Below the pieces are notes generated by a model, which saw nothing but the letters and a program-made list of their open reading frames with translations, had not been told where the DNA came from and did no database searches. Below are positions 15,990 through 34,106 of a stretch of DNA of 64,000 bases, one piece after another; within the stretch, counting starts at the first letter, position 1, and every line of letters begins with the position of its first letter. The position numbers were made by a program, and so were the translations under genes. Origin of the DNA: Promethearchaeota archaeon (lineage in GTDB: Archaea > Asgardarchaeota > Hermodarchaeia > Hermodarchaeales > Hermodarchaeaceae); the NCBI GenBank assembly GCA_048939595.1, contig JBHLPI010000001.1:16267-80266 (forward strand). Reading direction: 5' to 3'.

Positions 15990-16002
15990 TATTCTATCCC
16001 AA

Positions 16003-16245
16003 CTAATGTTTTGCCGTGATTTTCACCAGTGCGCGGATGACACCATCGTTTTCCTCAACACTGATGAGTTCGTTGTTGGTTGCAGAAATCCAGCCTTTGA
16101 TATCCGGAGTAAAGCCAGGATCTGTTGCTAAAATTTCGAGAACGTCTCCATTCTGAGCTTTACGATAAGCCCGTGCCACTTCGGTAATTGGACCGGGGCA
16201 CGCCATACCGCGGCAGTCCACAATTGTTTTTGGTGTTTCAGCCAT
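16003..16245 (-). CDS. tusA: TusA-like sulfurtransferase (SirA/YedF/YeeD family)
   Basis: An 80-aa protein with the CPxP motif (CRGMACPGPI). Confidence 0.85.
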   Translation of the reverse strand: MAETPKTIVDCRGMACPGPITEVARAYRKAQNGDVLEILATDPGFTPDIKGWISATNNELISVEENDGVIRALVKITAKH

Positions 16246-16320
16246 GCTAACATCTCCGATTTTCAGTATTCATTATTCCTTGAGCATTTATTCCAGTATT
16301 CTTTGTTCTTTTGACAGTGA

Positions 16321-16749
16321 CTAAATGAATAGGGTGATATCTGCATCCTTTGCGAAGTTGAGGAATGCAGCAGCCCCAAGAACATCGTCGACTTCATCAA
16401 TCAAGTCTTCACGCTTAATGTTCATGACATCCATTGTCATCTGGCAAGCGTAAAGCTTAGCCCCTAGGTCTTTGGCATCACGAATCATTTCAGGAAGTGC
16501 TTTTGCTCCAGCCTTTTTCATTCGTCCCTTCATCATGCCAGTTCCTATTCGCATCAACCCACCTAGTTTGACGCTATCGGCTCCTCCCTTCTTTTTAAGA
16601 AGGTTCAGACCCGAGAAGGTGAAAAAGACGCTAACGTCCATATCCATGGAAGCGCCAGTCACACCAAGAATAAAGGGTGGGTAGGCCATGTCCATGGTGC
16701 TCTTTGAGACAATTATTGCCATACGTTTCTTACCATTTCTTTCAGTCAT
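16321..16749 (-). CDS. DsrE/DsrF-like family protein (sulfur relay / DsrE2-like)
   Basis: A DsrE-like roughly 140-aa core (RMAIIVSKST...KLYACQMTMDVM). Start placed at ATG 16749 (MTERNGKK), since the longer ORF runs into the promoter region. Confidence 0.55.
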   Translation of the reverse strand: MTERNGKKRMAIIVSKSTMDMAYPPFILGVTGASMDMDVSVFFTFSGLNLLKKKGGADSVKLGGLMRIGTGMMKGRMKKAGAKALPEMIRDAKDLGAKLYACQMTMDVMNIKREDLIDEVDDVLGAAAFLNFAKDADITLFI

Positions 16750-17021
16750 TTGATGCAACTCCGTGTTTCCATTAGTTGCGTATGTTAGAACATTCGACAA
16801 TTTGAATATGTTATACATAAAAGGTTTTCCTTTTTTACATACTCTAGATAAACACCTATGAAGAGTTGAAGAAATTGATTGAAAAGGCTTCTTTCTCAAA
16901 CAACCTAAAAGCCGATAGGTGTCCCATTCATCCGGTTTCCAAAAGCTTTTTGTATTAGAATATTTGAATACGTGCGAATAACAGATAGCACACCCTAAGC
17001 TATCTTGAGGACGGTTAGACA

Positions 17022-17387
17022 ATGCAACTGCTTGAATTTGGCCTTATCCTCATTTTCACAACTTTAATCTTTGCTTCATTTCTTGCATCCATTATCCTTT
17101 CAAAGCTTGTTAGCCCAAGAAACCCGTCAAAAGAGAAAACCAAAAGTTTTGAGTGTGGTGAGGAACCCAGCGGTGCAGGTCGTGGACAATTCGCATTTCG
17201 ATATTATCCGTATTTGTTGATGTTTTTAGTATTTGATGTTGCTGCGATGTTCCTTTTTGCTTGGGCAGGTGCATTCTCTTCATTAGGACTCGAGCTCCAT
17301 ATCACTGTTTTAGCATTTCTTTTGGTTGTACTACCTCCTGTTGCATATGCAGTAAATGCAGCAGGAAATGCGGAAAGGTGGAAATAG
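17022..17387 (+). CDS. nuoA: Complex I subunit A (NuoA/ND3-like)
   Basis: FECGEEPSG motif and three transmembrane helices. Confidence 0.85.
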
Positions 17388-17389
17388 CA

Positions 17390-17905
17390 ATGACGGGAAT
17401 GGGATCCGCGTTTGTTGGTTCACTTCGTAACGTTTTAAATCGCGTGGTCAACGTTAAGCCAATTCGATATTTTGTGAATTGGTCACGATTATATTCCTTA
17501 TGGCCCGTCCATTTAACCACAGCATGTTGTAGCGTAGAATTTGGAGCAACAATGGGTTCAGGATTTGATGCTGAACGACTCGGTCTTCTCCCCCTTGGTT
17601 CCTTACGGCAATGTGATCTTTTAATCATCGAGGGGACTGTGACAAAGAAAATGGCTGAGCGAGTCGTTCGCATTTACAACCAGATGGCTTCACCACGTTA
17701 CGTGATTGCAATGGGAGCGTGTGCAATTTCAGGTGGAGTCTTTCGCGATTCTTATAGCATAGTTCCTGGCGTTGACAAAATTCTTCCCGTGGATGTGTAT
17801 GTCCCCGGATGCCCTCCACGACCGGAGATGCTAATCGATGCCATTTTGGAACTTCAACAAAAAATCAGGGAATCGAAGGTGGCTTTAGTTGATGGTACAA
17901 AATGA
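17390..17905 (+). CDS. nuoB: Complex I subunit B (NuoB/PSST-like, with N2-type [4Fe-4S] ligands)
   Basis: [19 protein letters not shown] and [11 protein letters not shown], so all four Cys ligands are present. Start reassigned to ATG 17390. Confidence 0.85.
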
Positions 17906-18203
17906 TGTATTTGAATTACAGGCCGAGATCTGCAAAGTATTGGCAAACCCCAAACGAATTCGAATTATCCATGTACTGAAAGACGGAGATAAGTCCGTTA
18001 CGGAAATTTCCAAAGCACTTGGGATTAGCCAATCGAACACCTCTCAACATCTTAGATTAATGAAATCCAAAGGTGTGCTCAAGTCAAGGCGGGATGGCCG
18101 AGAAATTTTTTACAGTATTGCTGTGCCGGAGCTCTCTCTTGCTTGTGAATTCGTTGGGCGTGCTTTAGAAAAAATCGTTGGTATTCCGCGAGCAACAAAA
18201 TAG
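17889..18203 (+). CDS. ArsR/SmtB-family winged-helix transcriptional regulator, embedded between nuoB and nuoC
   Basis: HTH segment [29 protein letters not shown]. It overlaps the nuoB 3' end on the same strand. Confidence 0.75.
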
Positions 18204-18216
18204 CAGGTGAACGAAT

Positions 18217-18684
18217 TTGTCCAAGTATCTTAAAGACTTGAAATCAGCCTTTCACGAAACAGACCTGGAAATCATCGAGAGACATTCTAAACAGCCAGTT
18301 CTTCGGGTTCCCAGTGATCAATTAGTTCCAATCGCTCAATATCTGAAGGAGAATACGGGGTTTGATCATGCTGTATCAGTTTCTGTGATTGATGATTTGG
18401 CGAATAACCAGTTTCTCATCGCCTATCACCTCGCCTCTGTTAAAAAACCAGAGTTGCATGGCGTCGTCTTCACATTGGAAGTTGTGAGTCCTCGAGGAAC
18501 TCCCTCCACCCCCTCACTTACAGCAATCTGGCCAAGCGTTGAATTTCATGAACGGGAGGGTTGGGAGATGTTTGGAATTAAGTTTGAGGGGCATCCGAAA
18601 CTGGAACGCCTCCTTCTACCAGAAAGTTGGGAGGGAGGTTATCCACTTCGTAAGGATTTCAAGCAAAAGGAGGAGGCAAAATGA
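18217..18684 (+). CDS. nuoC: Complex I subunit C (NuoC, 30 kDa)
   Basis: EREGWEMFGIKFEGHPKLERLLL signature. Confidence 0.85.
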   Translation: MSKYLKDLKSAFHETDLEIIERHSKQPVLRVPSDQLVPIAQYLKENTGFDHAVSVSVIDDLANNQFLIAYHLASVKKPELHGVVFTLEVVSPRGTPSTPSLTAIWPSVEFHEREGWEMFGIKFEGHPKLERLLLPESWEGGYPLRKDFKQKEEAK

Positions 18685-19760
18685 CAGAAATAGAGTATAG
18701 CATGGGCCCTCAGCATGCTGGCACAGGTCATATGCGAATGAAAGTTCGCTTATCTGGAGACCGGGTTATTCAAGCATTACCTGATCCGGGTTACGTGCAT
18801 CGCGGTGCTGAAAAACTCTGCGAGTTAAAAGAATTCTTTTGGAATATTCCACTTCTTGAACGTGTTTGTCTTCCGGATACAACTCCAGCTGCTTGGGGAT
18901 ATGTTCTCGCTGTAGAACGGCTTATGGGACTAGTACCTACAGAACCAGCCCGCTATATCCGAGCCCTGTTTGCAGAAATGAATCGCATTGTGAGCCACCT
19001 ATATTGGCTAGCAATTTTTGGAATCTTTCTGGGTCACTCAACGATGTTCATGTGGCCCTTTGCTGAACGTGAACCCTTCATTGAACTTGCTGAAGCAATA
19101 TCGGGTTCAAGGCTTACTCATAGCGACATCTATCCGACCGGGGTTCGACAAGCCCTTCCAGACAACTTTGCCCCAAGGATGAAAAAAGTAATTAAGCATT
19201 TCCAAAAGCGCCTTGTCGATTATGAACGAATTTTTTTCACTACAGCCATTTTCAAACAGCGAACAAAAGAAATTGGTATCCTCACGAAGGAAGATGCCAT
19301 CCGACTAGGTACAACCGGACCAGTTCTACGTGGTTCTGGGGTGAATTACGATATACGGAAGATCGATCCCTATGGACCATATCCCAAATTAGATTTCGAG
19401 CCTGTTGTTAGGGATGAAGGCGATAGTTATTCCCGGGCAATGGTCCGATTAGAGGAAATGCGAGTAAGTGCAGCCTTAATTGAACAAATCTTAGATCAGA
19501 TTCCTCCGGGGGAAGTCCGTCTAAAAACCCCGAAAAAGGTTCCCGCGGGGGTAGCTTATACCCGGGTTGAATCCGCACGTGGAGAGTTAGGATATCTGGT
19601 TGTAAGCCATGGTGAGAAACAGCCTAGCCGAGTGAAAGTAAGTACACCATGCTTCCGACATCTTCCAGCTCTTGAGTTCCTCCTCAAGAATATTGACCTC
19701 GCAGACATTCCGAGTATCTATTGGAGTCTCGATTATTGGCCACCAAATGCGGACAGGTAG
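18681..19760 (+). CDS. nuoD: Complex I subunit D (NuoD, 49 kDa-like); not a [NiFe] hydrogenase large subunit
   Basis: MGPQHAGTGHMRM N-terminus. The N- and C-terminal CxxC NiFe-binding motifs are absent. ATGA overlap with nuoC. Confidence 0.8.
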   Translation: MTEIEYSMGPQHAGTGHMRMKVRLSGDRVIQALPDPGYVHRGAEKLCELKEFFWNIPLLERVCLPDTTPAAWGYVLAVERLMGLVPTEPARYIRALFAEMNRIVSHLYWLAIFGIFLGHSTMFMWPFAEREPFIELAEAISGSRLTHSDIYPTGVRQALPDNFAPRMKKVIKHFQKRLVDYERIFFTTAIFKQRTKEIGILTKEDAIRLGTTGPVLRGSGVNYDIRKIDPYGPYPKLDFEPVVRDEGDSYSRAMVRLEEMRVSAALIEQILDQIPPGEVRLKTPKKVPAGVAYTRVESARGELGYLVVSHGEKQPSRVKVSTPCFRHLPALEFLLKNIDLADIPSIYWSLDYWPPNADR

Positions 19761-19766
19761 TGATGA

Positions 19767-20816
19767 ATGTTGCAGATTCTCGAAACGATTAACATCTTAA
19801 TTCAGCAAATGATTACCTTTGTTTTAACAAACTTAACGACAATATTCCTCCTCACTGTGTTTCCTGGATTTCTCACCATCGTCCTTGCAGCTGCAGCAAT
19901 TATTTGGTTTGAACGAAAATTCCTTGCGAAAATGCAGTTACGTGTTGGTCCCCAATACGCAGGGCGTATCGGAGGAATCTTACAACCCGTCGCGGATTTC
20001 TTGAAGCTTATCTTCAAAGAAGGAATTGTCCCTAAACGTGCGGATAGTTTCTTTTATCAATTAGCACCAATTCTTATTGTCACCCTAGCAGCAGTCACCG
20101 CCACTGTAATTCCCGTCGGACCCACTGCCGTCATCGCCAATCTTGAATATGGATTATTATTCATTTTTGCTGCTGGTGCACTTTTTCCCGTTCTTGCTTT
20201 CTTAACTGCATGGGCGAGTAACAGTGCTTATCCGTTTCTGGGTGGTCTTCGTGCGCTTCTTCAGATGATGGCATATGAAGTACCTTTATGGCTGTCAGCG
20301 GTGGGTGTTGTTATTCTGGCTGGATCATTCAATCTCACAGCTATCGTATTGGCCCAAAATTGGCTTTGGTTTGCAATCCTCATGCCTTTAGGAGCGGTAG
20401 TCTTTTTCACCGCAATGCTTGTTGAGCTTGAACGCATTCCCTTCGATTTACCAGAAGCAGAACCAGAAATTGTGACAGGATACATGAGCGAATACTCGGG
20501 TATGAACTTTGGCTTAATGATGATGTCACAGTATCTGAAACTCTACCTTGGAGCCCTACTTTTCACTACCCTTTTCTTAGGTGGGTGGCTAATGCCACCA
20601 TTCATCACTACGATACTTCCCTTTATTCCGCCCTTCATATGGACCCTTCTCAAAACTGCTTTTGTGATTGTCCTCTTTCTACTCCCACGAGGAATCTATC
20701 CCCGTGTTAAAATCTCGAAACTCCTTAAACTGGGTTGGAACCGCCTCTTCTTCATTGCTGTTGTAAACCTGGTCTTGGTAGTTGGAATTATGTTTGTTCT
20801 TGGAGGTGTTCCCTAG
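19767..20816 (+). CDS. nuoH: Complex I subunit H (NuoH/ND1)
   Basis: FERKFLAKMQLRVGPQYAG...GILQPVADFLKLIFKE signature. Confidence 0.85.
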   Translation: MLQILETINILIQQMITFVLTNLTTIFLLTVFPGFLTIVLAAAAIIWFERKFLAKMQLRVGPQYAGRIGGILQPVADFLKLIFKEGIVPKRADSFFYQLAPILIVTLAAVTATVIPVGPTAVIANLEYGLLFIFAAGALFPVLAFLTAWASNSAYPFLGGLRALLQMMAYEVPLWLSAVGVVILAGSFNLTAIVLAQNWLWFAILMPLGAVVFFTAMLVELERIPFDLPEAEPEIVTGYMSEYSGMNFGLMMMSQYLKLYLGALLFTTLFLGGWLMPPFITTILPFIPPFIWTLLKTAFVIVLFLLPRGIYPRVKISKLLKLGWNRLFFIAVVNLVLVVGIMFVLGGVP

Positions 20817-21244
20817 TGCCGATCAAAGCGTCCTGGGCTGGACTAAAACAGATATTCAAACGTCGAGTCACCATTAAATACCCAAGTCAAGAATTAGAAC
20901 TGACAAAACGTGAACGTGGTCGCCACGTCTTTTACTTCGACCGATGTATTAGTTGTTCCTTATGCGCTCGGAGCTGCCCAACCTATGCGATTACTATGAT
21001 TGATTACCCAGGGAAAGAGAAGCCGAAGAGACACCCACAAATAGATTATGGTTTATGTATTTTCTGTGGGTATTGTGTCGATGCCTGTCCAAAGGATGCA
21101 CTAGTGCATTCTCGCTATTTTCATTTAGCAAACCGAGAAACTGCTCCGCTGGTTTTCAGTCCTGATCAGTTAGCAGAGATTCCCGAAGGAGAAGACCATC
21201 TTCTCCCATCTAATGAAGAATCTGAAAAGGAGGAAGACCAATGA
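20816..21244 (+). CDS. nuoI: Complex I subunit I (NuoI, 2x[4Fe-4S] ferredoxin-type)
   Basis: CISCSLCARSCP and CIFCGYCVDACP motifs. The GTG start overlaps the nuoH stop (TAGTG). Confidence 0.8.
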   Translation: MPIKASWAGLKQIFKRRVTIKYPSQELELTKRERGRHVFYFDRCISCSLCARSCPTYAITMIDYPGKEKPKRHPQIDYGLCIFCGYCVDACPKDALVHSRYFHLANRETAPLVFSPDQLAEIPEGEDHLLPSNEESEKEEDQ

Positions 21245-21759
21245 TTGATCCATTCTTCTTGCCAGATCTAGCGCTAATCGTAATTGGAGTTCTAACCATC
21301 GCGGCTGCTATAGCAGCCCTTGAGTCAAGAGAGATTGTTTACGGGGCAATTTCATTGGCTGGGATGTTCTTGGGTATTGCAGGGCTGTTCATCTTATTGG
21401 ACGCTTCATATGCAGCGATGTTTCAAATATCTGTGTATATTGGCGCTGTGGTCGTTCTGATCTTCTTTACCATTATGGTCGTTCCCTACGAACATTGGCG
21501 ATATCGGCTCAAACGACCGCGACGGGAATGGATTATTCCCCTGGTTATCAACGCACTCCTATTCAGTGTACTTCTCTACATCTTCTATTCACCCGCAATT
21601 GTTGAAGCCTTGCCAGACCCGGCATTTGGTTGGAACATAACAGATCTTGCCTTAGCTCTTCTGGAGGATTATGGTGTGGCACTATTGATTCTCGGGATCG
21701 TTCTTGCTTCAGCGCTCATAGGAGCCCTAACTTTGATAAAAAAGGAGGATGAAACCTAA
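21241..21759 (+). CDS. nuoJ: Complex I subunit J (NuoJ/ND6)
   Basis: Hydrophobic protein in the syntenic position, with a Gly-rich TM1. Confidence 0.7.
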   Translation: MIDPFFLPDLALIVIGVLTIAAAIAALESREIVYGAISLAGMFLGIAGLFILLDASYAAMFQISVYIGAVVVLIFFTIMVVPYEHWRYRLKRPRREWIIPLVINALLFSVLLYIFYSPAIVEALPDPAFGWNITDLALALLEDYGVALLILGIVLASALIGALTLIKKEDET

Positions 21760-22079
21760 TGGCGACGTTGGTCGTGTATCTGGTAATTGTAGGCTTCCTT
21801 GCGGCGATTGGGCTCTATGGATTGACTAGTAAGCGGAATGTCATGCGATTATTCTTTAGTATTGAAATCCTCATGAATGCAGCGAATTTGAGTTTCGTCG
21901 CTTTTGCCCGGTATGTACTATGGGGAGTTGCTGCGCTGGCTGTCATGGGCCATGCCATTGTGCTATTTGCTATAGCCCTTGAAGCCGCGGAGGCTGCCAT
22001 TGCGCTGGCAATTATTCTCCTCGTCTCACGAGTGCGAGGTTCAGTTGACATTCGTGAGCTTCGTGATCTGGAGGGTTAA
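21759..22079 (+). CDS. nuoK: Complex I subunit K (NuoK/ND4L)
   Basis: FFSIEILMNAANLSFVAF signature in a roughly 100-aa protein. Confidence 0.85.
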   Translation: MATLVVYLVIVGFLAAIGLYGLTSKRNVMRLFFSIEILMNAANLSFVAFARYVLWGVAALAVMGHAIVLFAIALEAAEAAIALAIILLVSRVRGSVDIRELRDLEG

Positions 22080-22084
22080 CCACT

Positions 22085-23617
22085 TTGCAGACGGTCATCG
22101 ATACTATCATAATCTTCCTGCTAACTCATCCGCTAACTTTGGGCATGTTCCTTCCACTCCTCTTTGCAGGCGCAATCTATCTCTTTGCACGACACCGGGA
22201 ACGTACAGCACAATGGGTAAGTATAATTGCAATAGTTCTCTCTATGGGTCTGGTATTGTTACGTGGATTAGAGCTATTCCCCTTTTCGACGTCTTCACCG
22301 CCCTATGTCTTAGAAACGTTTCTCTGGATTCCAACCCTTAATATTACCCTGAGCTTCATGCTCGATGGGCTTAATTTCCCTATAATAATTATCACAGCAA
22401 TTATTACTGCCCTAATAATTTCCTTTAGTCGCTATTACTTTGAAAATGTGAAAAATAATGGTACTTACTTTGCGACGATTCTCCTGATGTATGTTGGAAT
22501 GCTTGGCGTGTTTGTCGCGGCAGATCTTTTCTTATTCTATTTGTTCTGGGAAATCACAATCATACCAGCATATGTTTTTGTCATCTATTGGCGAGAAACA
22601 GGAGTTTCCAAAGTAGAGGCCCAAAAGACTGGTATGAAATTCTTCCTTTGGACACATGTAGGTTCCCTTGTTATGCTAATGGGTCTGATCCTTGTCTTCA
22701 CGTTAACGGGAACCACTAGAATGGTTGACATTCCAGCCGCATTGGCAACGGTGCCAATCGAATTTATGCATATTTTGCAATTTGCTGCGGCTGCAATGAT
22801 ATTCGGATTCATCGTCAAACTTGGCATTTTTCCTTTCCATAGTTGGCTCCCAGATACTTATGTTCAGGCTTCATCACCTGTCACTGCTCTAATTGGGGGA
22901 CTTCTTGCCAATATCGGAGCCTACGGATTGATACGGATTACAGCAAGTTGGTTTCCATCGATTATTGTCGCATGGTCAGTTCCACTGGGTCTACTCGCTA
23001 TATCCTCTATAATCTATGGTGGATATCTTGCCATTGGTCAGAGTGAATTCAAGCGGCGATGGGCCTATTCAAGCGTGAGTCAAGGTGGATACATCCTTCT
23101 TGGCGTTGCATCAGTTTCGGTCCTTGGACTTGCAGGCGCAGCCTTCCATATTATCAATTCGGCGATTATCAAATCCGCCTTATTTCTTACTGCTGGAGCT
23201 TATCTCATGATTGTTCGAACAACGAATATTGATTCCCTTCGTGGTATAGGCACTAAGATGCCGATAACTGGTATTTCCTTCTTACTAGCAGCTTTTGCTA
23301 TGGCCGGAATACCTCCATTAAGCGGGTTTATCAGTGAAATCCTCATCTTCCTGGGAATCTTCACGGTTTCGAATGCATTGATTGTGGCATTAATAGGAGC
23401 CGGTGCAATTTTGGTCACTTTCACTTACGTGCTTGGGCCTATTTACAAGCTCTTTGTGTCACCACCTGAATCAAAACTTACCAACAAGAAGGATCCATCT
23501 CACTGGCAATCAATTCCATTCATCCTCATGACACTCCTTGTAGTTGTCATAGGAATTTGGCCTGACCTAGTTCTAACGCCAATTGGACACTGGGTACTCA
23601 ATCTAGGAGGACTCTAA
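22085..23617 (+). CDS. Additional NuoM/ND4-like (Mrp antiporter-like) membrane subunit, copy 1
   Basis: FYLFWEITIIPAYVFVIYWRETG and HSWLPD motifs of the NuoL/M/N-MrpA/D family. It lies between nuoK and nuoL. Confidence 0.75.
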   Translation: MQTVIDTIIIFLLTHPLTLGMFLPLLFAGAIYLFARHRERTAQWVSIIAIVLSMGLVLLRGLELFPFSTSSPPYVLETFLWIPTLNITLSFMLDGLNFPIIIITAIITALIISFSRYYFENVKNNGTYFATILLMYVGMLGVFVAADLFLFYLFWEITIIPAYVFVIYWRETGVSKVEAQKTGMKFFLWTHVGSLVMLMGLILVFTLTGTTRMVDIPAALATVPIEFMHILQFAAAAMIFGFIVKLGIFPFHSWLPDTYVQASSPVTALIGGLLANIGAYGLIRITASWFPSIIVAWSVPLGLLAISSIIYGGYLAIGQSEFKRRWAYSSVSQGGYILLGVASVSVLGLAGAAFHIINSAIIKSALFLTAGAYLMIVRTTNIDSLRGIGTKMPITGISFLLAAFAMAGIPPLSGFISEILIFLGIFTVSNALIVALIGAGAILVTFTYVLGPIYKLFVSPPESKLTNKKDPSHWQSIPFILMTLLVVVIGIWPDLVLTPIGHWVLNLGGL

Positions 23618-23619
23618 AA

Positions 23620-25245
23620 ATGCTACCAGGAATTCCTCTGCCATATCCATTCTTGCTCCTTTCTCTTCTAATTCCTGTCATCGCTGCAATACTAATCCTT
23701 TTAACAATCCTCGTTGGGAAGCCCTTAGGCCGAAAGGGTGCTGGGCTAATTGCATCGATTGCCATGGCGAGCTCCTTCATCATATTACTCTACGTTCTCA
23801 GTATTGTCTTAGCCGTTGGGCAACCCGTCTATGAAGAATACTATTGGTTTTCAATTGGCCCGGTAATTGTTGAATTCTCCCTCCTTGCTGACTCCCTTAG
23901 CCTCCCGCTTTCATTGGCCATCATTGGTTTGTGTACTGCATCAGCAATCTACAGTATCGAATACATCAAAGACAAGCACGATTTTGCCATGTATTATGTT
24001 CTCCTCCTCTTCTTTGCTCTTGGTATGCTCGGAGTAACCATGGCAACCAACCTCATTGTCTTCTTCATCTTCTTCGAAGGAATGAACATTCCAGCCTACT
24101 TCCTCGTCTCCAACTGGGGAACAAAGAAAGCCAAAATCATCGGCATAAAATACATACTTTATATCTTCATCGGCGCTATCTGTATCCTCACGGCTATTTT
24201 TTGGGTATTTGGAATAACAAGTACCTTGGGAACACCCACACTGAATATCTACGAGCTCCCTGCAATACTCAATCCCCTAGCATCAACAAGTCTACTAATC
24301 ATGCAAAGCCTTGCCCTCCTATTCTCTATAGGATTCTTCGTAAAAATGGCAATCTTCCCTCTCCACTCATGGCTGCCAGACTTTCATGGCGAAGCTCCAG
24401 TACCAATTCACGCTTTACTTAGCGCCGTCATGATCAAAACAGGAGCCTATGGGTTTATTCGAATTACATTCTTTTTCTTCCCATCTGTGGTTCTTCACGC
24501 CTCACTGCTCCTTGCGGTCCTAGCCATCATTACAATGATTTGGGGAGCAGGTATGGCATTAGTTCAAACGGATTACAAACGTGTTCTAGCTTATAGTTCT
24601 GTAAACCAGATTGGTTACATCCTTCTTGGTCTTAGTACCATGAACATCTTTGGAATCACTGGTGCTCTCTTTCATATTCTAACCCATGGTCTTTCCAAAG
24701 GAGTTCTACTTTACACTGCAGGTTCACTGGTGCACTCCGCAGGAACAAAACTCATCAGTAAAATGGGAGGGCTAGCCTCTAAAATGCCATTAACCTCATC
24801 CCTGAGTACAATTGGAGCACTAGCCATTGCGGGAACACCGCCTCTTGCCACATTCGTCAGTGAAGTCTTAATCTTCATGGGCGTTTTCACTGTTGGCTTC
24901 ACCTATCCGATCTTTACAGTCATAGGAATTATCGGAGTTATTTCCACTGCACTCACTGCTGCCTATTATTTGTGGACAGTTCGAAGAATATTCTTCGGTC
25001 CACCATCTAGAAAAATGGACAAAATGTATGAGGACTATCTTGCTGGCGAGTACACCCCTCCAGAAGGAATTCCACGGCGTTTCAAAGATGTCCATGAATC
25101 ACCGCCCCTGATGACTATTCCAATGCTTATTGTTGCATTCCTTATTGTTAGCTTTGGAGTCTTCGCGGGCTTCATTCTCCCAATCCTCTATCCCGCTGCT
25201 GAAGCCATCGTAACAATGCTTACAGCGACCATAGGAGGACTCTAA
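23620..25245 (+). CDS. Additional NuoM/ND4-like (Mrp antiporter-like) membrane subunit, copy 2
   Basis: FFIFFEGMNIPAYFLVSNWG and HSWLPDFHGEAP motifs. Confidence 0.75.
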   Translation: MLPGIPLPYPFLLLSLLIPVIAAILILLTILVGKPLGRKGAGLIASIAMASSFIILLYVLSIVLAVGQPVYEEYYWFSIGPVIVEFSLLADSLSLPLSLAIIGLCTASAIYSIEYIKDKHDFAMYYVLLLFFALGMLGVTMATNLIVFFIFFEGMNIPAYFLVSNWGTKKAKIIGIKYILYIFIGAICILTAIFWVFGITSTLGTPTLNIYELPAILNPLASTSLLIMQSLALLFSIGFFVKMAIFPLHSWLPDFHGEAPVPIHALLSAVMIKTGAYGFIRITFFFFPSVVLHASLLLAVLAIITMIWGAGMALVQTDYKRVLAYSSVNQIGYILLGLSTMNIFGITGALFHILTHGLSKGVLLYTAGSLVHSAGTKLISKMGGLASKMPLTSSLSTIGALAIAGTPPLATFVSEVLIFMGVFTVGFTYPIFTVIGIIGVISTALTAAYYLWTVRRIFFGPPSRKMDKMYEDYLAGEYTPPEGIPRRFKDVHESPPLMTIPMLIVAFLIVSFGVFAGFILPILYPAAEAIVTMLTATIGGL

Positions 25246-25246
25246 T

Positions 25247-27280
25247 ATGCTTCTGTACGCACAATGGCTCGCATGGATCATTCCCGTCCTCGGTGCGATT
25301 CTTATCGCTACAGTTGGATGGTTCGATAAGCGGCTTCCCAAATACATTGCTGTTGTTGTTGGGGCTATTGCCGCTATATTCGCTGTTTCCATGATTCAAG
25401 ATATACTTGCCTTACCATCCTTAGGAGTAGCTTACCTTGAATTCAATTATCCATGGGTAGTGCTACCTGGAATCACAATCTATGTTGGAGTTCTCCTCGA
25501 TCCATTAAGTGTCTTCATGAGCAACATTGCCATCCTCATCGGCTTCCTGATCATCGTCTATTCCATGAGCTATATGGGTGAAGATAAAAGCCAAACCCGC
25601 TACTATGCGATGATTCTTCTCTTCATCGGTGCTATGACAGGCCTCGTACTTTCTAACAACTTTCTCCAATTATTCATCTTCTGGGAAATTGTGGGAATCT
25701 GCTCATACGCACTAATCGGATTCTGGTATGAAAAACCGGAGGCGGCGCGGGCTGGAATGAAAGCCTTTGTCGTGACTCGTGTGGGCGACGTGCTCCTTCT
25801 GATCGGTATCGTATTCCTTTTCACGCAGGTAGGATCTTTTAACTACATTATCATTCAAAACGCCGTACAACTTGGTATGGTTAGCCTTTTTGCACTCACC
25901 ATGGTTTCGCTCTTCACCTTTGGTGGTGCCATGGGTAAATCTGCGCAAGTTCCATTTCAAGTCTGGCTTCCAGATGCTATGCAGGGTCCAACACCCGTTA
26001 GCGCTCTGATCCACGCAGCGACAATGGTCAAAGCGGGCATCTATCTTGTGGGTCGAACCTTCTTTCTTTTTGGTTCTGTCACACTTTGGCTTAATACAGT
26101 CATCATTATCGGTTCAATCACTTCAATACTTGCAGCAACAATAGCTTTAGCTTCCACTGATCTCAAAGGTGTTCTCGCCTATTCAACGATAAGCCAACTT
26201 GGTCTTATCATGGCTGCACTCGGAGTCGGAACGGCAGTAGGATGGTTTGCAGGTCAAGCGCACGTGATGAGCCATGCCATCTTTAAAGCCTTACTCTTCC
26301 TTTGCGCAGGTTCAGTCCTTCATGCTGTCATGACTAATGATATCAACCAGATGGGAGGGCTCCGCCATAAAATGCCAATAACATTTGCAGCAAGCGTGAT
26401 TGGTGTTTTAGCGTTAGGCGGTATATTTCCCTTTAATGGATTCTGGAGTAAAGATCTCATATTTGCAGCTACCTTGAACTCTGGTGCACTCATACCCCTA
26501 GTTCTGCTTTGGGCGGCGTCTGTGTTTACTGTGGCGTATAGTTTCCGGTGGATAATTTTGATTTTCTTAGGTGAACCACGAAATGAGGAAGTCGTTTTGC
26601 ATGCCCATGAAAGTCCCAAGTTAATAACCATCCCACTAACCATCTTAGCCACGGCCGTTATCATTTCAGCAGTTCTCATTCCCACAGGATTACTGGCAAC
26701 CTATTTTGATGTTCATATCCATTTTGAAATCGAACTGATCCCACTCTTGCTTTCGCTCTCTACCCTTGCAATCGGAGGGATTCCAGCGATTTTAGTCTAC
26801 AAATATCGAAAGCCAGGACCAGAAACATTTGGGCGAAACCGCATAAGCGGTGTGATACAAAAGGTGTTAAGCAATGGATATTACTTTGACAAAGTCTATG
26901 ACTGGGTTTTTGTACGTGGTACACTTCGAATTTTTAATTTCATCCTATCACGAATTGAACTTGGCACCATTGACCGATTCCACTATGTTTTGGCACCCAA
27001 AGTAGAAGCTGGAAGCCTCAAGTTAGAACAGGTAGTCGAGCATCGAGGATTTGATAGTGCTAATAGCAAATTTTCGCAATTCATAGTCAAAACATCGAAT
27101 GCCAGCAACTATGTAGATGTGAATATAGTTGATGGAGTAGTCAACAGAATCGCCACTGCAGGAGAGAGAGCCTCCAAAGGTCTACGGCGAGTACAAACAG
27201 GTGTCACAATGAACTATATCCTCGCCTTTGTAATTGGGATAGTTCTACTGATTCTATTTCTGGTAATATTGGGTTGGTGA
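25247..27280 (+). CDS. nuoL: Complex I subunit L (NuoL/ND5) with the long C-terminal extension
   Basis: 677 aa, with the NuoL signature FIFWEIVGICSYALIGFWYEKPEAARAGMKAFVVTRVGDV. Confidence 0.85.
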   Translation: MLLYAQWLAWIIPVLGAILIATVGWFDKRLPKYIAVVVGAIAAIFAVSMIQDILALPSLGVAYLEFNYPWVVLPGITIYVGVLLDPLSVFMSNIAILIGFLIIVYSMSYMGEDKSQTRYYAMILLFIGAMTGLVLSNNFLQLFIFWEIVGICSYALIGFWYEKPEAARAGMKAFVVTRVGDVLLLIGIVFLFTQVGSFNYIIIQNAVQLGMVSLFALTMVSLFTFGGAMGKSAQVPFQVWLPDAMQGPTPVSALIHAATMVKAGIYLVGRTFFLFGSVTLWLNTVIIIGSITSILAATIALASTDLKGVLAYSTISQLGLIMAALGVGTAVGWFAGQAHVMSHAIFKALLFLCAGSVLHAVMTNDINQMGGLRHKMPITFAASVIGVLALGGIFPFNGFWSKDLIFAATLNSGALIPLVLLWAASVFTVAYSFRWIILIFLGEPRNEEVVLHAHESPKLITIPLTILATAVIISAVLIPTGLLATYFDVHIHFEIELIPLLLSLSTLAIGGIPAILVYKYRKPGPETFGRNRISGVIQKVLSNGYYFDKVYDWVFVRGTLRIFNFILSRIELGTIDRFHYVLAPKVEAGSLKLEQVVEHRGFDSANSKFSQFIVKTSNASNYVDVNIVDGVVNRIATAGERASKGLRRVQTGVTMNYILAFVIGIVLLILFLVILGW

Positions 27281-27286
27281 GTCATT

Positions 27287-28747
27287 ATGGTTCTTTGGGA
27301 AAATGCATTACTCATATTGATTGGCGGAGCATTACTAGGTTCAGTCATTTTGTACCTGTTGGGTCGATTTGGCGAAAGGATTGTCAAAGGCTTTGCTGTG
27401 ATCTGGACCGCCCTCTTGTTCCTTTTCACAGGACTAATATGGTTAGGATTCAACTCCAGTGCACCAGGATTTTCCTACCTCATCGAAATCCCTTGGATAC
27501 CAACCCTTGGTATTACCTTCAAACTGGGTGTTGATGGGATCAGCTTTCCATTGCTTTTAGCCACAACGCTTCTCACTTTAGCTGCAACGATTGGATCCCT
27601 TACATTAATCAAAGAACGAGTCGCTATGTACTTTGGCACACTCTTACTGCTTGAAGCTGCACTTATTGGAGTATTTGTTTCTCTGAACTTACTTGTCTTC
27701 TTCATCTTTTGGGAACTCGTTCTAATTCCCATGTTTATTCTAATCGGTATTTGGGGCTATGAAAACCGCCGATATGCGGCAATGAAATTCCTAATCTTTA
27801 CCCATGTTGGCAGCATCCTGATGCTCTTGGGATTCATCATACTCTTCCTCTTCGCTGGTACCTGGGATTTGACCTACTTCCTCACTTCACCAATTCCCTT
27901 CGCTGTTGCAGTACCAGTCATGATAATCACTTTCATTGGATTCGCCGTGAAACTACCCATTGTTCCCCTTCACACCTGGCTTCCCGATGCCCACGTTGAA
28001 GCCCCAGCCCCCATAAGCATCATCTTAGCAGGAGTCCTGTTGAAAATGGGAGGCTATGGCTTAATCCGTATTACTATTGGAGTGTTTCCTGAAGTTTCAG
28101 CGTGGCTGGCACCAATCATCATGACCCTAGGCATTATAACGATTTTTTACGGTGCACTGGTCGCATTAAATCAACGTGACATGAAACGTATGATTGCCCT
28201 AACAAGCATCAATCACATGGGACTAGTCCTCCTTGGTGCTTTTACGCTCACAACCATTGGAGTTGCAGGTGCCGTATTTATGATGTTCAATCATGCCTGT
28301 GCAATAGGTATGATGTTTCTGCTTACAGGCGTTATCCAAAAACGCACAGGAACTCGAAACATAGACGAACTATCAGGTATGGGCAAATTCATGCCTTGGA
28401 CAGCCTTTTTCTTCGTTTTAGGTTCACTTGCCTCTATGGGAATACCATTCTTTGCACCCTTCGTCAGCGAATTCATGATCTTTACTGGCGCTCTTTCAAT
28501 TCTACCGCTTCTGGTGTTTATTATTCTCGCACCAGGAATTGTCGCGGCCTATTTTCTATGGACAATTGATCGCATTGTAATTACTGACCCACGCCCAGGA
28601 ACCCGTATGCGACGTGCTCGTAATACAGAACTTATCGCGCTTACGTTGTTACTGATTCCAGTTATTCTCCTTGGACTCCTTCCTGCGATGATGGTTGACC
28701 GGATTATTCCAGCTGTACAAGTCTTACTAAGCTTTGGAGGTTCGTAG
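27287..28747 (+). CDS. nuoM: Complex I subunit M (NuoM/ND4)
   Basis: FKLGVDGISFPLLL and FFIFWELVLIPMF signatures. Confidence 0.85.
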   Translation: MVLWENALLILIGGALLGSVILYLLGRFGERIVKGFAVIWTALLFLFTGLIWLGFNSSAPGFSYLIEIPWIPTLGITFKLGVDGISFPLLLATTLLTLAATIGSLTLIKERVAMYFGTLLLLEAALIGVFVSLNLLVFFIFWELVLIPMFILIGIWGYENRRYAAMKFLIFTHVGSILMLLGFIILFLFAGTWDLTYFLTSPIPFAVAVPVMIITFIGFAVKLPIVPLHTWLPDAHVEAPAPISIILAGVLLKMGGYGLIRITIGVFPEVSAWLAPIIMTLGIITIFYGALVALNQRDMKRMIALTSINHMGLVLLGAFTLTTIGVAGAVFMMFNHACAIGMMFLLTGVIQKRTGTRNIDELSGMGKFMPWTAFFFVLGSLASMGIPFFAPFVSEFMIFTGALSILPLLVFIILAPGIVAAYFLWTIDRIVITDPRPGTRMRRARNTELIALTLLLIPVILLGLLPAMMVDRIIPAVQVLLSFGGS

Positions 28748-30217
28748 ATGCAATTTACTGAAATGATCATATGGTTCTTCAGCCTTGTTGCTAGCCCTTT
28801 CTTCCCCTTCATCATATTTGCGATTCTAGCGTTGCTTACACCTGTTATCGATCGAGTCTTTCGAGGGAAAGTCGCCCCTTTTTGGGCACTCCTCAATCTT
28901 GCTATATTCGCAATATTAGTGCTGCCTCAATGGACGACCATTATTACTTCACCATCCGTCTCCACAACCCTCCTCCTAGATGGCATTAGCCTATTTTTCG
29001 TGACTCTTTTCATCGTCGTTGGTGTTGCCGTCATCATTGCATCAATTAACTACTTCGAGGAAAATCCCAACAAAGAGATCTACTACACATTACTGCAACT
29101 AGCCCTTCTAGGAATGATGTTGTTATCCATGGCAGTTGATTTAATTGTCATGTTCGCCGGATGGATACTCGTTGCTGTTAGCAGCTACACACTTGTGGTA
29201 ATTCGTAAAGACAATGCACAAGGTGTTGAGGCTGGCGTAAAGTACCTCATCATGAGCGCTGCATCCTCAGCAGTAATGTTACTTGGCATCTCAGTAATCT
29301 TTGGACTCACAGGAAGTACTCGATTAGTAGAGATTTCTTCGGCATGGACTACCCTTGATCCAAACCTTGTTCCTATCGCCCTACTAGGCGTAATGTTGAT
29401 TCTAGTTGGATTTGGGTTCAAAATGGGCATCATCCCATTCCATATGTGGCTGCCTGACACGTATGAAGGCGCCCCACAGCCAGTTTCCGCCTTTCTAGGC
29501 GGAGGCTCAAATAAAGCCGCTTTTGCTGTGGCTATCCGTGTCTTCATTTTAGGATTCCTGATCTTCCGCTTCCAATGGACTGCTGCATTTGCTTTTCTCG
29601 CACTAATAACTATGACGTGGGGAAACATTGCAGCTCTCTCACAAAAAACTCTTCCAAGGTTGCTCGCATATTCAGCTATTGCACAAGCGGGGTACACAAT
29701 AATCGGTCTTGCCGTACCAACGGTCTTAGGATTATCAGGCTTAATGTTTCATGCCTTGAATGATGGATTAGCCAAAACAGGAGCATTCATTGCAGCAGCA
29801 GCTGTCGCTTTTACGCTTACGAAAACCAAACTTTCTGGATACAATGGCTTAAGCAAACGAATGCCAATCACTGCTCTTAGCTTAACAATTCTACTTTTAG
29901 CACTTGCAGGTGTCCCTCCTTTGAGTGGATTTTTCAGTAAACTGATTTTGTTTACAGCAGCAGTCGAAGTAGGATTACTCTGGTTAGCACTCGCAGGTGT
30001 CCTTAATAGCGCGTTTTCACTTGCTTATTACGGATGGATAATCAAACGAATGTTTATGGACGAGCCTGACGAGGCGGTCACAGATCAGCCCGTCAGAGAA
30101 TCACGTAAATTCCAGTTTGTGCTCATCACACTAGCAGTAGCCACAATTCTCATTGGAATTTTTAGTGGTATAATTCTCGGATACATCGAAGCCATAGTGA
30201 TTGGGTTCTTACCTTAA
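28748..30217 (+). CDS. nuoN: Complex I subunit N (NuoN/ND2)
   Basis: GVEAGVKYLIMSAASSAVMLLGISVIFGLTG signature. Confidence 0.8.
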   Translation: MQFTEMIIWFFSLVASPFFPFIIFAILALLTPVIDRVFRGKVAPFWALLNLAIFAILVLPQWTTIITSPSVSTTLLLDGISLFFVTLFIVVGVAVIIASINYFEENPNKEIYYTLLQLALLGMMLLSMAVDLIVMFAGWILVAVSSYTLVVIRKDNAQGVEAGVKYLIMSAASSAVMLLGISVIFGLTGSTRLVEISSAWTTLDPNLVPIALLGVMLILVGFGFKMGIIPFHMWLPDTYEGAPQPVSAFLGGGSNKAAFAVAIRVFILGFLIFRFQWTAAFAFLALITMTWGNIAALSQKTLPRLLAYSAIAQAGYTIIGLAVPTVLGLSGLMFHALNDGLAKTGAFIAAAAVAFTLTKTKLSGYNGLSKRMPITALSLTILLLALAGVPPLSGFFSKLILFTAAVEVGLLWLALAGVLNSAFSLAYYGWIIKRMFMDEPDEAVTDQPVRESRKFQFVLITLAVATILIGIFSGIILGYIEAIVIGFLP

Positions 30218-30235: not shown

Positions 30236-31591
30236 TCATTCATTGGGTGGAGTTATTCGTAAGAATTGTCCAACAAGTGTAACGATGTCAACCACCGGTA
30301 TGTCCAAGCCAAGCCGTTGCATCCCATGAGTAAGATTAAGAACACAGAAAGGACAGGCAGAGACAACCATGGTCGCCCCTGTTTCCATAATTTCACCAAC
30401 ACGTTCCCAGGCCATGCGCTCTTCTAAAGGCATTACCGCCTTTTCTTCTTCGGAAAGTTCATGATACTCTCTTGTTAGGTTTTTTGCCGCCTCCTTAACT
30501 TGAGCTGGGGAACTGGTAGGTTTGGCATCATGGATTCGTTTTGCGGCGATCTCTAAGGCAAGCTCTGGTATTCCAGCTTTTACTCCACCCCCAGCGCCAC
30601 AACACCGTGAGTATTCTCGGGTGCGCTTCATCTCGACAAGTGTTATGCCAGGCAAAAGCTCAAGGATTCGTCGAGGCTCATCATAGACGCCTACATGGCG
30701 ACCAAGATGACAGGGGTCGTGATATGCTACACGTTCCTCAACACCCGGGAGGGGGTCAATCTTAACGGTTTCTAATTTCTTAGCAAGCAATTGTGTAATA
30801 TGTTGAACTTTGAAAGGTAACTTCCCGTAGTATCTTGGCCAATCGAAGACAGAGGTTCGAAAACAACCAGAGCATGAATACACAACGAGGTTCACACCTT
30901 TTTCTCTGATAGTGTTTACATTGTGTTGAACGAGGTCTTTGACGACTTCAATCTGTCCAGTTCGAATAAGTGGAGAACCACAGCACCGTTCATCATTTCC
31001 GGGTAATACAAAATCGATATTTAGCTTGTTTAGAATCCGAGCTGTGGTAATGGCGAGGTGTTGCATCTTATAAGAAGATGTACATCCCACAAAATATGCT
31101 ATATCTGCGGTCTCAGCTACTTTGACATCAGAAGGCAACCAATTTGATCGTGCAAGATGATCTTCTCCATACGGGTTATACTTGGTTTTAACATTAGTTG
31201 GCCATTGGCGCTGTCGTTCGAGTGGTCCAAAACCTTGCTTCACCATATCAGCGCGAATTGTTTCCCATAGACTACAACTTTTAATTCGTGATTCACACAC
31301 CGTTTGACACTGTCCACAGACTGTGCAAAGGTAAAGATCTTCCACAAACTTGTCGATCTTATTCTTATCAATAAGACTTCCACCTCTAGCCCGTCCCATA
31401 ATTCCGTAGACGTGTTTGACCATTTCTCGCAGATTTCGAATCTTTCCACGAGCTGTTACACCTTCGCGCTGTAACTGGTCAAAGACTGGACAGAACTTAA
31501 CACATTCCCCACAATCGACACAAGCATCGAGTTCCATCGTTTGTTTTCGAGTTAATTGTGGGAAACTCATTTTTTCTTTATTAGTTGTCAT
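30236..31591 (-). CDS. HdrD-like / GlcF-like iron-sulfur oxidoreductase with two CCG domains. Start uncertain: 31651, 31591 or 31570.
   Basis: Two ferredoxin-like 4Fe-4S motifs (CVDCGECVKFCP, CTVCGQCQTVCES) and two CCG cysteine clusters (FVGCTSS, RCCGSPL, HDPCHLGRH, CCGAGGG, CPFC). Confidence 0.75.
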   Translation of the reverse strand: MTTNKEKMSFPQLTRKQTMELDACVDCGECVKFCPVFDQLQREGVTARGKIRNLREMVKHVYGIMGRARGGSLIDKNKIDKFVEDLYLCTVCGQCQTVCESRIKSCSLWETIRADMVKQGFGPLERQRQWPTNVKTKYNPYGEDHLARSNWLPSDVKVAETADIAYFVGCTSSYKMQHLAITTARILNKLNIDFVLPGNDERCCGSPLIRTGQIEVVKDLVQHNVNTIREKGVNLVVYSCSGCFRTSVFDWPRYYGKLPFKVQHITQLLAKKLETVKIDPLPGVEERVAYHDPCHLGRHVGVYDEPRRILELLPGITLVEMKRTREYSRCCGAGGGVKAGIPELALEIAAKRIHDAKPTSSPAQVKEAAKNLTREYHELSEEEKAVMPLEERMAWERVGEIMETGATMVVSACPFCVLNLTHGMQRLGLDIPVVDIVTLVGQFLRITPPNE

Positions 31592-32306
31592 TCTCATCAA
31601 CACCCGTGACTTCGCGAATATATTCCTCCTCCCACTTTTCTTCAATCGCACTACGAACCATGATTATTGGCGCCGCAATGATATGCTGAAATTTTGAATA
31701 AAATAAAACGGCAATCATCGTCCATATAATGAATCCGTGAATGATTCCATACCACCCGCGAATACCGATAACATATTCATAGGAAAACGCTAAATGCCCT
31801 GATACTGCAATAGACAGCAGTAGAATCAACGGTAAGTAGTTATGAAAGTTTGTTACCGCTCGCCCCTCTTTCGAACCAATGCGGCTCCCAAAAGCCAGTA
31901 TTACACCAATTACTAGCATTATAGTCAATACATCATGAGCAATGATTCGCATTTCCAGAGTAGCCCAAGGAAAGAGAATGGCTTCATTAAGTAAAATGAG
32001 CCGAGGGATCCCATGGAAGAAAAGGAGACCTGCAAATCCCACCAAAATAAATCCGTGTTTCACCCATCTAAACATGGACTGACGTCTTATCGTTCCACCA
32101 AAAGTCCAATCAGAGATTACCGTCTTAATAAAAGCCACAAATTTTGTTCGAAAAGGCACATCAATGAGCCAACCAGCTGTATGCTCAGCAGGTTCTTCGT
32201 GTGGTTTCGTCCAACGGACGAGAATCCGAATGAAACCGATCGTAAACAGGGCTAACGCGATCCAACGATAGAAAAACAAAATTTGATACGCTAGCTCTTG
32301 TTCCAT
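31581..32306 (-). CDS. Putative membrane cytochrome b-type subunit (HdrE/DsrM/NarI-like), partner of the HdrD-like protein
   Basis: About 5 transmembrane helices with several conserved-looking His residues. It is immediately upstream of, and overlapping, the HdrD-like gene. Family assignment rests on context and topology. Confidence 0.45.
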   Translation of the reverse strand: MEQELAYQILFFYRWIALALFTIGFIRILVRWTKPHEEPAEHTAGWLIDVPFRTKFVAFIKTVISDWTFGGTIRRQSMFRWVKHGFILVGFAGLLFFHGIPRLILLNEAILFPWATLEMRIIAHDVLTIMLVIGVILAFGSRIGSKEGRAVTNFHNYLPLILLLSIAVSGHLAFSYEYVIGIRGWYGIIHGFIIWTMIAVLFYSKFQHIIAAPIIMVRSAIEEKWEEEYIREVTGVDENDN

Positions 32307-34046: not shown

Positions 34047-34106
34047 TATTGATTCCCTCTGTGCTTCTTTAGAAGGTTGCACCCAGTGAAGTTAGCATTC
34101 TCGAAT

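Follow-up and report, generated by a model that had tools for sequence, protein, structure and literature searches.

A complex-I-type operon with five antiporter-like subunits and a lengthened NuoL lateral helix in an Asgard archaeon

A stretch of 64,000 nucleotides from a Promethearchaeota archaeon of the Hermodarchaeia (contig JBHLPI010000001.1, positions 16,267 to 80,266; hereafter the window) carries at 17022-30217 a complex-I-type operon of 14 open reading frames (ORFs), all on the + strand. Their order is nuoA-B-(arsR)-C-D-H-I-J-K, X1-X2, nuoL-M-N, where X1 and X2 are extra NuoM-type genes. Complex I normally possesses three antiporter-like pumps and moves 4 H+/2e-. The operon described here encodes five antiporter-like subunits, and its NuoL bears an insertion of 53 amino acids (aa) in the lateral helix (HL). 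According to the explanation that we favour, and to which we give a slightly better than even chance, these genes encode one complex-I-type enzyme devoid of the NADH module (N-module), which would transfer electrons from a ferredoxin-type donor to menaquinone and move up to 6 H+/2e- through five antiporter-like modules. We infer from the evidence given below that the five modules assemble into one complex, and likewise which donor and acceptor it uses, its stoichiometry and the direction in which the reaction runs.

Pfam and NCBIfam profile searches of the operon proteins revealed all 11 complex-I core subunits (A, B, C, D, H, I, J, K, L, M and N). The first genes are nuoA (17022-17387, 121 aa; PF00507, 8e-24), nuoB (17390-17905, 171 aa; PF01058, 6e-30; NCBIfam NuoB, 209 bits, cutoff 116), which encodes the carrier of cluster N2, and a gene encoding an ArsR/SmtB-family winged helix-turn-helix (wHTH) regulator (17892-18203, about 103 aa; HTH_5, 3e-13; NF033788, 86.8 bits, cutoff 55). 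They are followed by nuoC (18217-18684, 155 aa; PF00329, 6e-36), nuoD, of the short archaeal form (18681-19760, 359 aa; PF00346, 1e-77; NF004739, 401 bits, cutoff 360), nuoH (19767-20816, 349 aa; PF00146, 5e-98), nuoI (20816-21244, 142 aa; GTG start, two Fer4 motifs), nuoJ (21241-21759, 172 aa; PF00499, 3e-26) and nuoK (21759-22079, 106 aa; PF00420, 1e-21). Then come the five large genes, all of whose products match Proton_antipo_M of Pfam (6e-60 to 3e-77): the extra NuoM-type genes X1 (22085-23617, 510 aa; TIGR01972, 321 bits, cutoff 264) and X2 (23620-25245, 541 aa; TIGR01972, 306 bits, same cutoff), nuoL (25247-27280, 677 aa; TIGR01974, 527 bits, cutoff 407), nuoM of canonical type (27287-28747, 486 aa; TIGR01972, 468 bits, cutoff 264) and nuoN (28748-30217, 489 aa; best match TIGR01770, 320 bits, just below the cutoff of 333). 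The NCBI annotation of these proteins is generic (NuoL, "NuoM family protein").

Every junction of the operon is an overlap or a gap of at most 13 nt. The TAG stop codon of nuoA and the ATG of nuoB are separated by 2 nt, the ATG of arsR at 17892 falls within the last codons of nuoB, nuoC and nuoD share an ATGA overlap, and the TAG of nuoH overlaps the GTG of nuoI at 20816 (TAGTG). nuoI and nuoJ overlap by 4 nt and nuoJ and nuoK by 1 nt, while the gaps from nuoK through X1, X2, nuoL and nuoM to nuoN are of 0-6 nt. The original prediction, made from the sequence alone, of 13 colinear and tightly packed nuo-type genes plus arsR is thus borne out, all ORFs being found where it had placed them with family matches far beyond chance, and the ATGA and TAGTG overlaps that it reported are those of nuoC/nuoD and nuoH/nuoI. 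Its coordinates hold except for two gene starts: nuoI starts at 20816 and not at the ORF start, 20735, and arsR starts at 17892. Rfam and tRNA scans of the window found nothing.

The ArsR-family regulator contains two cysteines: C15 precedes the "ANPKR" helix, and C86 belongs to the final helix. It matches the sulfite/persulfide sensor BigR below threshold (50 bits, cutoff 155). In view of the neighbouring genes related to sulfide:quinone oxidoreductase (SQR) and DsrE2, it could be a persulfide-responsive repressor.

The nature of X1 and X2 was examined by neighbour joining, in a tree built from 134 antiporter-like sequences over 470 columns and bootstrapped 50 times; NuoL/M/N and HyfB/D/F of E. 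coli served as references, and a sample of bacterial Mrp/Mbx-like loci was included. The L, N and M proteins of the window fall in the NuoL, NuoN and NuoM clades (100% each), the latter including the proteins of E. coli and Bryobacter. X1 stands in a clade of its own (100%), made up of its Asgard orthologues and of the M-like gene that comes first in a Geothermarchaeota locus. X2 joins its Asgard and Geothermarchaeota (locus L027) orthologues (88%), and this group is nested in the clade (60%) to which the single NuoM of Bathyarchaeia and that of Caldarchaeales belong. Both are apart from the Hyf subunits of E. coli and from the bacterial Mrp/Mbx-like loci sampled; the node uniting all M-type sequences has a bootstrap value of only 56%. 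Among solved chains, X1 and X2 score 178-192 bits with NuoM/NdhD and 107-134 bits with MrpD (45-60 bits apart), the best PDB matches being NdhD/NuoM for X1 and NuoM (8qby_M) for X2. X2 keeps all key residues (E153, K242, K273, H356 and E415), as does NuoM (E143, K222, K253, H336 and E395). X1 keeps the Glu of transmembrane helix (TM) 5, the TM7 Lys and the TM12 Glu, and NuoN keeps the Lys of TM7, TM8 and TM12. The TM12 Glu is a hallmark of NuoM (PMC9271201). Since they pass the NuoM cutoff, possess this Glu, are placed with NuoM in the tree and score higher with NuoM/NdhD than with MrpD, X1 and X2 are best classed as NuoM-type paralogues and not as Mrp-type proteins. In the same way, no MrpA with a C-terminal MrpB-like domain and no MrpC, E, F or G was found in the operon, all ORFs of which are otherwise assigned. 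The two extra antiporter-like subunits that had been announced are therefore real, and only their description as Mrp-like has to be replaced; the placement of these proteins in a tree, which had been set beforehand as a possible refutation, groups X1 and X2 with NuoM-type clades and so does not refute the prediction.

A second line of evidence, absent from the original prediction, supports the extra antiporter-like modules: the matching insertion of 53 aa in the lateral helix of NuoL (aa 570-622, encoded by 26954-27112 on the + strand). Residues 568-622 or so have no counterpart in solved NuoL/NdhF chains, while both flanks align. The insertion amounts to about two extra copies of a unit of 26-27 aa that opens with a hydrophobic residue followed by Asp. 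Among 48 aligned NuoL homologues from related loci, it was found in every five-antiporter locus and in none of the three-antiporter loci. The HL spacer, defined as the distance between two conserved anchors (aa 548 and 650 in the NuoL of the window), measures 45-50 aa in E. coli as well as in clusters with a complete K-L-M-N set. It reaches 102 aa in the window and 101-102 aa in all seven loci with five antiporter genes each (the window, L001, L003, L005, L006, L027 and L085). In the protein database, 21 of the 120 best NuoL clusters have a spacer of 99-102 aa, and a few proteins, one of which carries perfect tandem repeats of 27 aa, have a spacer of 124-135 aa. The AlphaFold2 model of NuoL (mean predicted local distance difference test score, pLDDT, of 78) has a confident core; for the C-terminal part it predicts, at low pLDDT, helices at 547-599, 603-649 and 654-676, the last of them a TM helix. 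If helical, the 53 residues would span about 80 Å, i.e., roughly the width of two antiporter modules.

Near-perfect tandem repeats of about 27-28 aa (one to three) occur in the HL of some NuoL homologues from Bathyarchaeia and unassigned organisms. For example, "NYIVANQTTRLSRVLLSYAELKGIDKL" is found twice in protein P0138 and "YRYLDMSLDVLYHKIVYGTIRFSK" three times in L032 (6230-8479, - strand); the NuoL homologue of L013 (5248-7350, - strand) also belongs to these loci. HL thus appears, from these sequences, to grow by tandem duplication, and membrane arms longer than five modules may exist.

The five-antiporter layout is not limited to the window. The order A-B-(R)-C-D-H-I-J-K-X1-X2-L-M-N is found in metagenome-assembled genomes (MAGs) of Promethearchaeota/Thorarchaeota at about 85% identity; X2 is identical to an NCBI protein from a Promethearchaeota MAG, and its nearest named relative (86% identity) is from a Thorarchaeota MAG. 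The same order is also present in L085, in an uncultured archaeon (about 60% identity) and, without arsR, in Borrarchaeum, Borrarchaeota and Sifarchaeum (about 50-60% identity), while a Geothermarchaeota MAG has the order Mlike-X2-L-M-N. The five antiporter genes are orthologous one-to-one across the Thor-like, Borr-/Sifarchaeia and Geothermarchaeota loci (clade supports of 88-100%). The arsR gene is present in L001, L002 and L005, with a weaker match in L003, and is absent from the Borr/Sif loci. The five-pump orthologue L085 adjoins genes encoding heme A synthase and COX4.

Other related loci are arranged differently. In L083, from a Hodarchaeota-labelled MAG (22-21084), the flanking genes (LarB, LarC, LarE, a fucose-isomerase-like gene, MenA, polyprenyl synthase and a geranylgeranyl-reductase (GGR) gene) match those of the window in order, with 62-83% identity. 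Its nuo genes are far more divergent (51% for NuoD, 39% for NuoL), include one extra M-type gene and encode a NuoL of 766 aa, which may mean either that the operon was replaced or that it evolved fast while its locus stayed the same. In many MAGs of Caldarchaeales/Aigarchaeota (L020-L063), only NuoL and an X2-type NuoM matched the nuo proteins of the window within the 10-kb flanks, the rest of the nuo operon being apparently located elsewhere. Lastly, the JGI contig Ga0315308_1000001 (about 1.13-1.17 Mb; L086/L087) carries two Nuo-like clusters with long NuoL (673 and 695 aa) that are interleaved with duplicated V/A-type ATPase genes; a FrhB_FdhB (FpoF-like) gene lies beside one of them (L087).

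NuoB keeps the four cysteines of cluster N2, as initially claimed: all four align with those of E. coli ("ACCSVEF", "GACAISGG" and "PGCPPRP"), including the tandem CC, which is typical of complex I. In NuoI, eight cysteines, arranged in two CxxCxxCxxxCP motifs, align with E. coli NuoI. The acidic loop of NuoH ("PFDLPEAEPE") is kept by comparison with E. coli, as are both membrane Glu of NuoK (E. coli E36 and E72). All the core subunits, the tandem Cys of NuoB, and the lateral helix and TM16 anchor of NuoL agree with the proposed 11-subunit type.

NuoD lacks both CxxC motifs that bind NiFe in hydrogenases: its L1 motif is "ERVCLPDTT" and its L2 motif, "DYWPPNADR", has no cysteine. The first L1 cysteine, C63, is retained and the other L1/L2 cysteines are gone; the absence of both motifs had thus been correctly noted, whereas the loss at L1 is not total. 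In the same alignment, the D homologues of Bathyarchaeia keep the NiFe ligands (RICGIC...DPCxxC). Because NuoD, unlike these relatives, lacks the NiFe ligands, the enzyme is not a group 4 [NiFe] hydrogenase of the Mbh/Ech/Hyf/Hfo type, in agreement with the original prediction, which had set aside Mbh/Ech. The best solved match of NuoD is MbsL of Pyrococcus furiosus (6u8y_L, 258.6 bits over the full length, versus 241 bits for Nqo4), with which it shares "R[IV]C[VL]P[ED]" at L1 and "D..PP..DR" at the C-terminus; the motif "ERVCLPD" recurs in a Hodarchaeota-labelled NuoD.

As for the input module, no match to NuoE, NuoF or NuoG was found in the operon or in any ORF of at least 150 aa of the window, and none to FrhB/FpoF in the same set of ORFs, so that the reported absence of these subunits from the operon is upheld. 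The Fpo-specific NCBIfam models stay far below their cutoffs (FpoD 313/600, FpoL 404/1050, FpoC 95/220 and FpoI 86/180 bits).

The genes surrounding the operon point to menaquinone and sulfur. Divergently from nuoA are found a DsrE2-like gene, a type III SQR-like gene, a GGR-family gene (13464-14663, - strand; TIGR02032, 230 bits), a polyprenyl diphosphate synthase gene (12256-13314, - strand; Pfam) and MenA (11163-12224, - strand; TIGR00751, 125 bits, cutoff 102). Convergent with the operon on its downstream side are genes encoding an HdrD/DsrK-like CCG protein, a His-rich membrane protein, DoxD/DoxX, a wHTH regulator and a FixC-like protein related to electron-transfer-flavoprotein:quinone oxidoreductase (ETF-QO). 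The His-rich protein, with five helices, is weakly similar to QmoC/HdrE and would form with the CCG protein an HdrDE/DsrMK-like pair. The sulfur/quinone-linked flanks (14772-17022 and 30236-35701, - strand) are conserved as a set only in L001, L002 and L005. On the other hand, the trio of MenA, polyprenyl synthase and GGR genes is also found upstream of nuoA in L003 and L083, and the last two of them in L085; relatives with such upstream menaquinone-synthesis genes share about 40-66% identity with the window in NuoD and NuoL. The sulfur and Hdr genes are thus limited to the closest relatives, and what is kept from lineage to lineage is the menaquinone-synthesis context, which makes menaquinone the likely electron partner.

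Some other features of the window deserve mention. The type III SQR-like flavoprotein scores 295 bits, below the cutoff of 525, and the true start of the DsrE2-like sulfur carrier is probably near 16722. Further away are a LarB/LarC/LarE-like set for synthesis of the nickel-pincer cofactor (6783-9271), a gene for a form III-like RuBisCO large subunit (50383-51615, - strand) and two genes for Ras-family small GTPases (5999-6586 and 38631-39182, both - strand), an Asgard signature.

In the favoured scheme, a low-potential soluble donor, most likely reduced ferredoxin, would give its electrons at NuoI. These would pass through the two [4Fe-4S] clusters of NuoI to cluster N2 of NuoB and then to a prenylquinone, most likely menaquinone, in a pocket formed by NuoB, NuoD and NuoH. 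The membrane arm would be lengthened by the addition of X1 and X2 to NuoN, NuoM and NuoL, with N-M-(X2/X1)-L as the likely order, and the lateral helix, longer by 53 residues, would remain able to clamp it over its full length. For every 2 e-, up to 6 H+ (or other cations) would be moved, whereas canonical complex I moves 4. With such a ratio an anaerobe whose membrane potential is low could harvest more of the energy gap between ferredoxin and menaquinone, and the reaction would be easier to reverse. The standard potentials are -450 to -500 mV for ferredoxin and -74 mV for menaquinone. Transfer from one to the other would yield 73-82 kJ per 2 e-, which would pay for the movement of about 5-6 H+ at 125-150 mV, so that translocation of 6 H+ would be feasible only at about 125-142 mV or below. 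A ferredoxin donor and a menaquinone acceptor have also been proposed, in the passages of Sun et al. (2021, PMC9723677) that deal with Sif- and Jordarchaeia, for a complex I without NuoEFG.

Several observations weigh against this reading of a ferredoxin-dependent enzyme with five pumps. In the lineage of the window, X1 has Asn276 instead of the TM8 Lys and Ser359 instead of the His, and NuoN has Ile140 instead of the TM5 Glu. Because X1 and NuoN have lost these canonical charged residues, fewer than five modules may pump. The losses are confined to the closest relatives (L001 and L005), the X1 TM8 Asn being also found in L027; the canonical residues are kept in the distant orthologues that have sequence there (L003, L004, L006, L007 and L060). 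The pLDDT of the NuoL model falls below 50 over the lengthened helix, where only the secondary structure is usable, and the mean hydrophobic moment of the insertion (0.256) is reached by 20% of shuffled sequences (0.213 +/- 0.054). Furthermore, the 53-aa insertion is found in L083 and L084 with four antiporter genes in the cluster, an insertion of 27 aa in the Bathyarchaeia loci L058 and L066 with three, and one of 80 aa in L087, also with three. A strict rule equating insertion length with gene number was therefore rejected: complete Asgard-type operons obey it in the 0 and +53 classes, while the Bathyarchaeia +27 loci and L087 (+80) do not. Finally, the quinone-binding Tyr of NuoD (position of Nqo4 Tyr87) is replaced by Leu, and the His (Nqo4 His38) is shifted by one or two positions. 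However, this state of the two ligands is that of the archaeal short-NuoD clade as a whole, and the Tyr is missing at the aligned position in all 120 nearest NuoD clusters, including those of Nitrosocaldus and of a Hodarchaeota-labelled protein; its loss is best seen as a trait of the clade that carries no evidence on the acceptor, and as an argument against a quinone it was rejected.

Some of these observations would suit other explanations. X1 and X2 could work apart from NuoM, as alternative or accessory subunits or as a separate antiporter; in cyanobacteria, NdhD and NdhF paralogues build different versions of NDH-1. The central TM8 Lys and the His lost by X1 and the single extra gene of L083/L084 next to the same NuoL insertion point in this direction. 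However, X1 and X2 lie between nuoK and nuoL in one operon with gaps of 2-5 nt, no second NuoL and no small Mrp subunit accompany them, the insertion in the NuoL helix co-occurs with the pair, and both are kept as orthologues over phylum-level distances, which makes this explanation quite improbable. An enzyme dependent on F420H2 or NADH, whose input module (FpoF/FrhB-like or NuoEFG/HoxEFU-like) would be encoded elsewhere in the genome, is a further point against ferredoxin as the donor: the window covers 64 kb of the genome, and L087 has its FrhB_FdhB gene beside the operon. We nevertheless consider it improbable, as no such module was found in the window or in the flanks of L001, L005, L083 and L085, the Fpo-specific models score as low as stated above, and Sif- and Jordarchaeia genomes are reported to lack NuoEFG in the study cited above (PMC9723677).

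Yet another function would be that of a sulfane-sulfur (polysulfide) reductase related to the membrane-bound enzymes MBS and MBX, which would act on its substrate close to the proximal cluster. In its favour, NuoD matches MbsL better than any other solved chain, ahead of Nqo4, with shared L1 and C-terminal motifs, MBS also lacks equivalents of Nqo4 H38 and Y87 (PMC7684303), and SQR-like, DsrE2, DoxD and HdrD-like genes are adjacent. But NuoB has the tandem CC and four ligands, versus a shortened three-Cys site in MBS (PMC7684303), and the subunits of the membrane arm (A, J, K, N, M and L with HL) belong to the Nuo type instead of the Mrp type. In addition, "ERVCLPD" is found in the Hodarchaeota-labelled NuoD too, the Tyr loss is common to the archaeal clade including Nitrosocaldus, and the context conserved between lineages is menaquinone synthesis and not sulfur genes; such a reductase is thus very unlikely. 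The last alternative keeps the same enzyme and reverses its role. Driven by about 6 H+ flowing inward, electrons would climb from menaquinol to ferredoxin. The SQR-like and FixC/ETF-QO-like enzymes encoded nearby would fill the menaquinol pool, and the reduced ferredoxin would be spent on releasing H2 or formate or on fixing CO2. This would suit the low membrane potential of a syntrophic anaerobe, since reversal would need about 125-142 mV at n = 6 versus 188-213 mV at n = 4. A like logic was proposed for the bacterial complexes with two NuoM (2M) or five pumps (PMC9040806), and the type III SQR-like, DsrE2 and FixC-like genes are menaquinol-producing neighbours. Nevertheless, the HdrD/HdrE-like pair, a candidate menaquinol oxidiser, adjoins the operon as well, the SQR, DsrE2 and HdrDE genes are limited to close relatives, the position of L085 beside heme A synthase and COX4 genes suggests forward respiratory use, and no source of membrane potential was identified. 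We hold the reverse role to be rather unlikely and retain the forward transfer from ferredoxin to menaquinone.

The Asgard archaea are the closest known relatives of the eukaryotic host. The absence of the N-module from their complex I has been known since 2021, from the passages on Sif- and Jordarchaeia (PMC9723677), which do not mention extra NuoM subunits. In the literature searched, in which Chadwick et al. (2018) was not included, neither two extra NuoM nor a doubled HL insertion was found described for an archaeal complex I, and a five-pump layout was found described earlier only for one bacterial family, the Manganitrophaceae. The operon brings no new principle. Its five-pump architecture is nevertheless an independent one and, in the lineage that stands closest to eukaryotes, widely conserved, being kept in several Asgard lineages and in at least one lineage of the TACK group (Thaumarchaeota, Aigarchaeota, Crenarchaeota and Korarchaeota). 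Enzymes that naturally carry four or five pumps put to the test how long a chain of them a single redox reaction can drive, and a second, independently built five-pump arm would offer a clean comparison for work on mechanism and structure. The locus also sharpens an open question about Asgard archaea, that of membrane energy conservation and of a reversible chemistry between ferredoxin and menaquinone, and, with a defined operon for which both subunit order and stoichiometry are predicted, it provides concrete targets. Were the reverse role true, the enzyme would be a built-in engine of reverse electron transport for H2/formate syntrophy or CO2 fixation and would bear on metabolic models of eukaryogenesis.

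Among known systems, MBS of P. furiosus (6u8y, PMC7684303) provides the best solved match of the D subunit and shares with it one cysteine of the NiFe site in "RxCxP[ED]" and the absence of the Tyr, but it has an Mrp-type arm (MbsA, B, C, D, E and G), a three-Cys proximal cluster and a second retained cysteine, none of which is found here. The Hfo of Bathyarchaeia (10.1101/2020.12.10.419648) has a Nuo-like gene order, and its single M is the closest relative of X2 (42-44% identity); however, its D subunit keeps RICGIC/DPCxxC, unlike that of the Asgard operon. The archaeal Nuo/Fpo-like complexes of 11 subunits (Fpo of Methanothrix without FpoF; Nuo of Sif- and Jordarchaeia, PMC9723677) are similarly reduced to the core, with a ferredoxin donor and menaquinone or another membrane carrier proposed. 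They are described with three antiporter-like subunits, whereas the Asgard operon has five, and its proteins do not reach the Fpo models.

The 2M complex I of Nitrospira has one extra NuoM and an HL insertion of 26 aa, a pairing also reported from Manganitrophaceae (PMC9040806), and a higher H+/2e- ratio was proposed for it (Chadwick et al. 2018, as reported in PMC9040806 and PMC7117926). It resembles the Asgard system by its extra NuoM-type gene in the nuo operon and by the addition of about 26 aa to HL per extra subunit. The latter differs by its two extra M-type genes located between nuoK and nuoL, its insertion of 53 aa, its archaeal host and its lack of NuoEFG. The closest likeness in number is that of Complex_I_3 of Manganitrophaceae, which its authors called unique in known biology in 2022 and which also combines five ion-pumping subunits with a lengthened lateral helix (PMC9040806). 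This complex is a hybrid of two MrpD-like subunits, two NuoM and NuoN, without NuoL, whereas the Asgard arm comprises NuoL, three NuoM-type subunits and NuoN. Because of this difference in subunit make-up, the five-pump arm of Asgard archaea is an independent solution.

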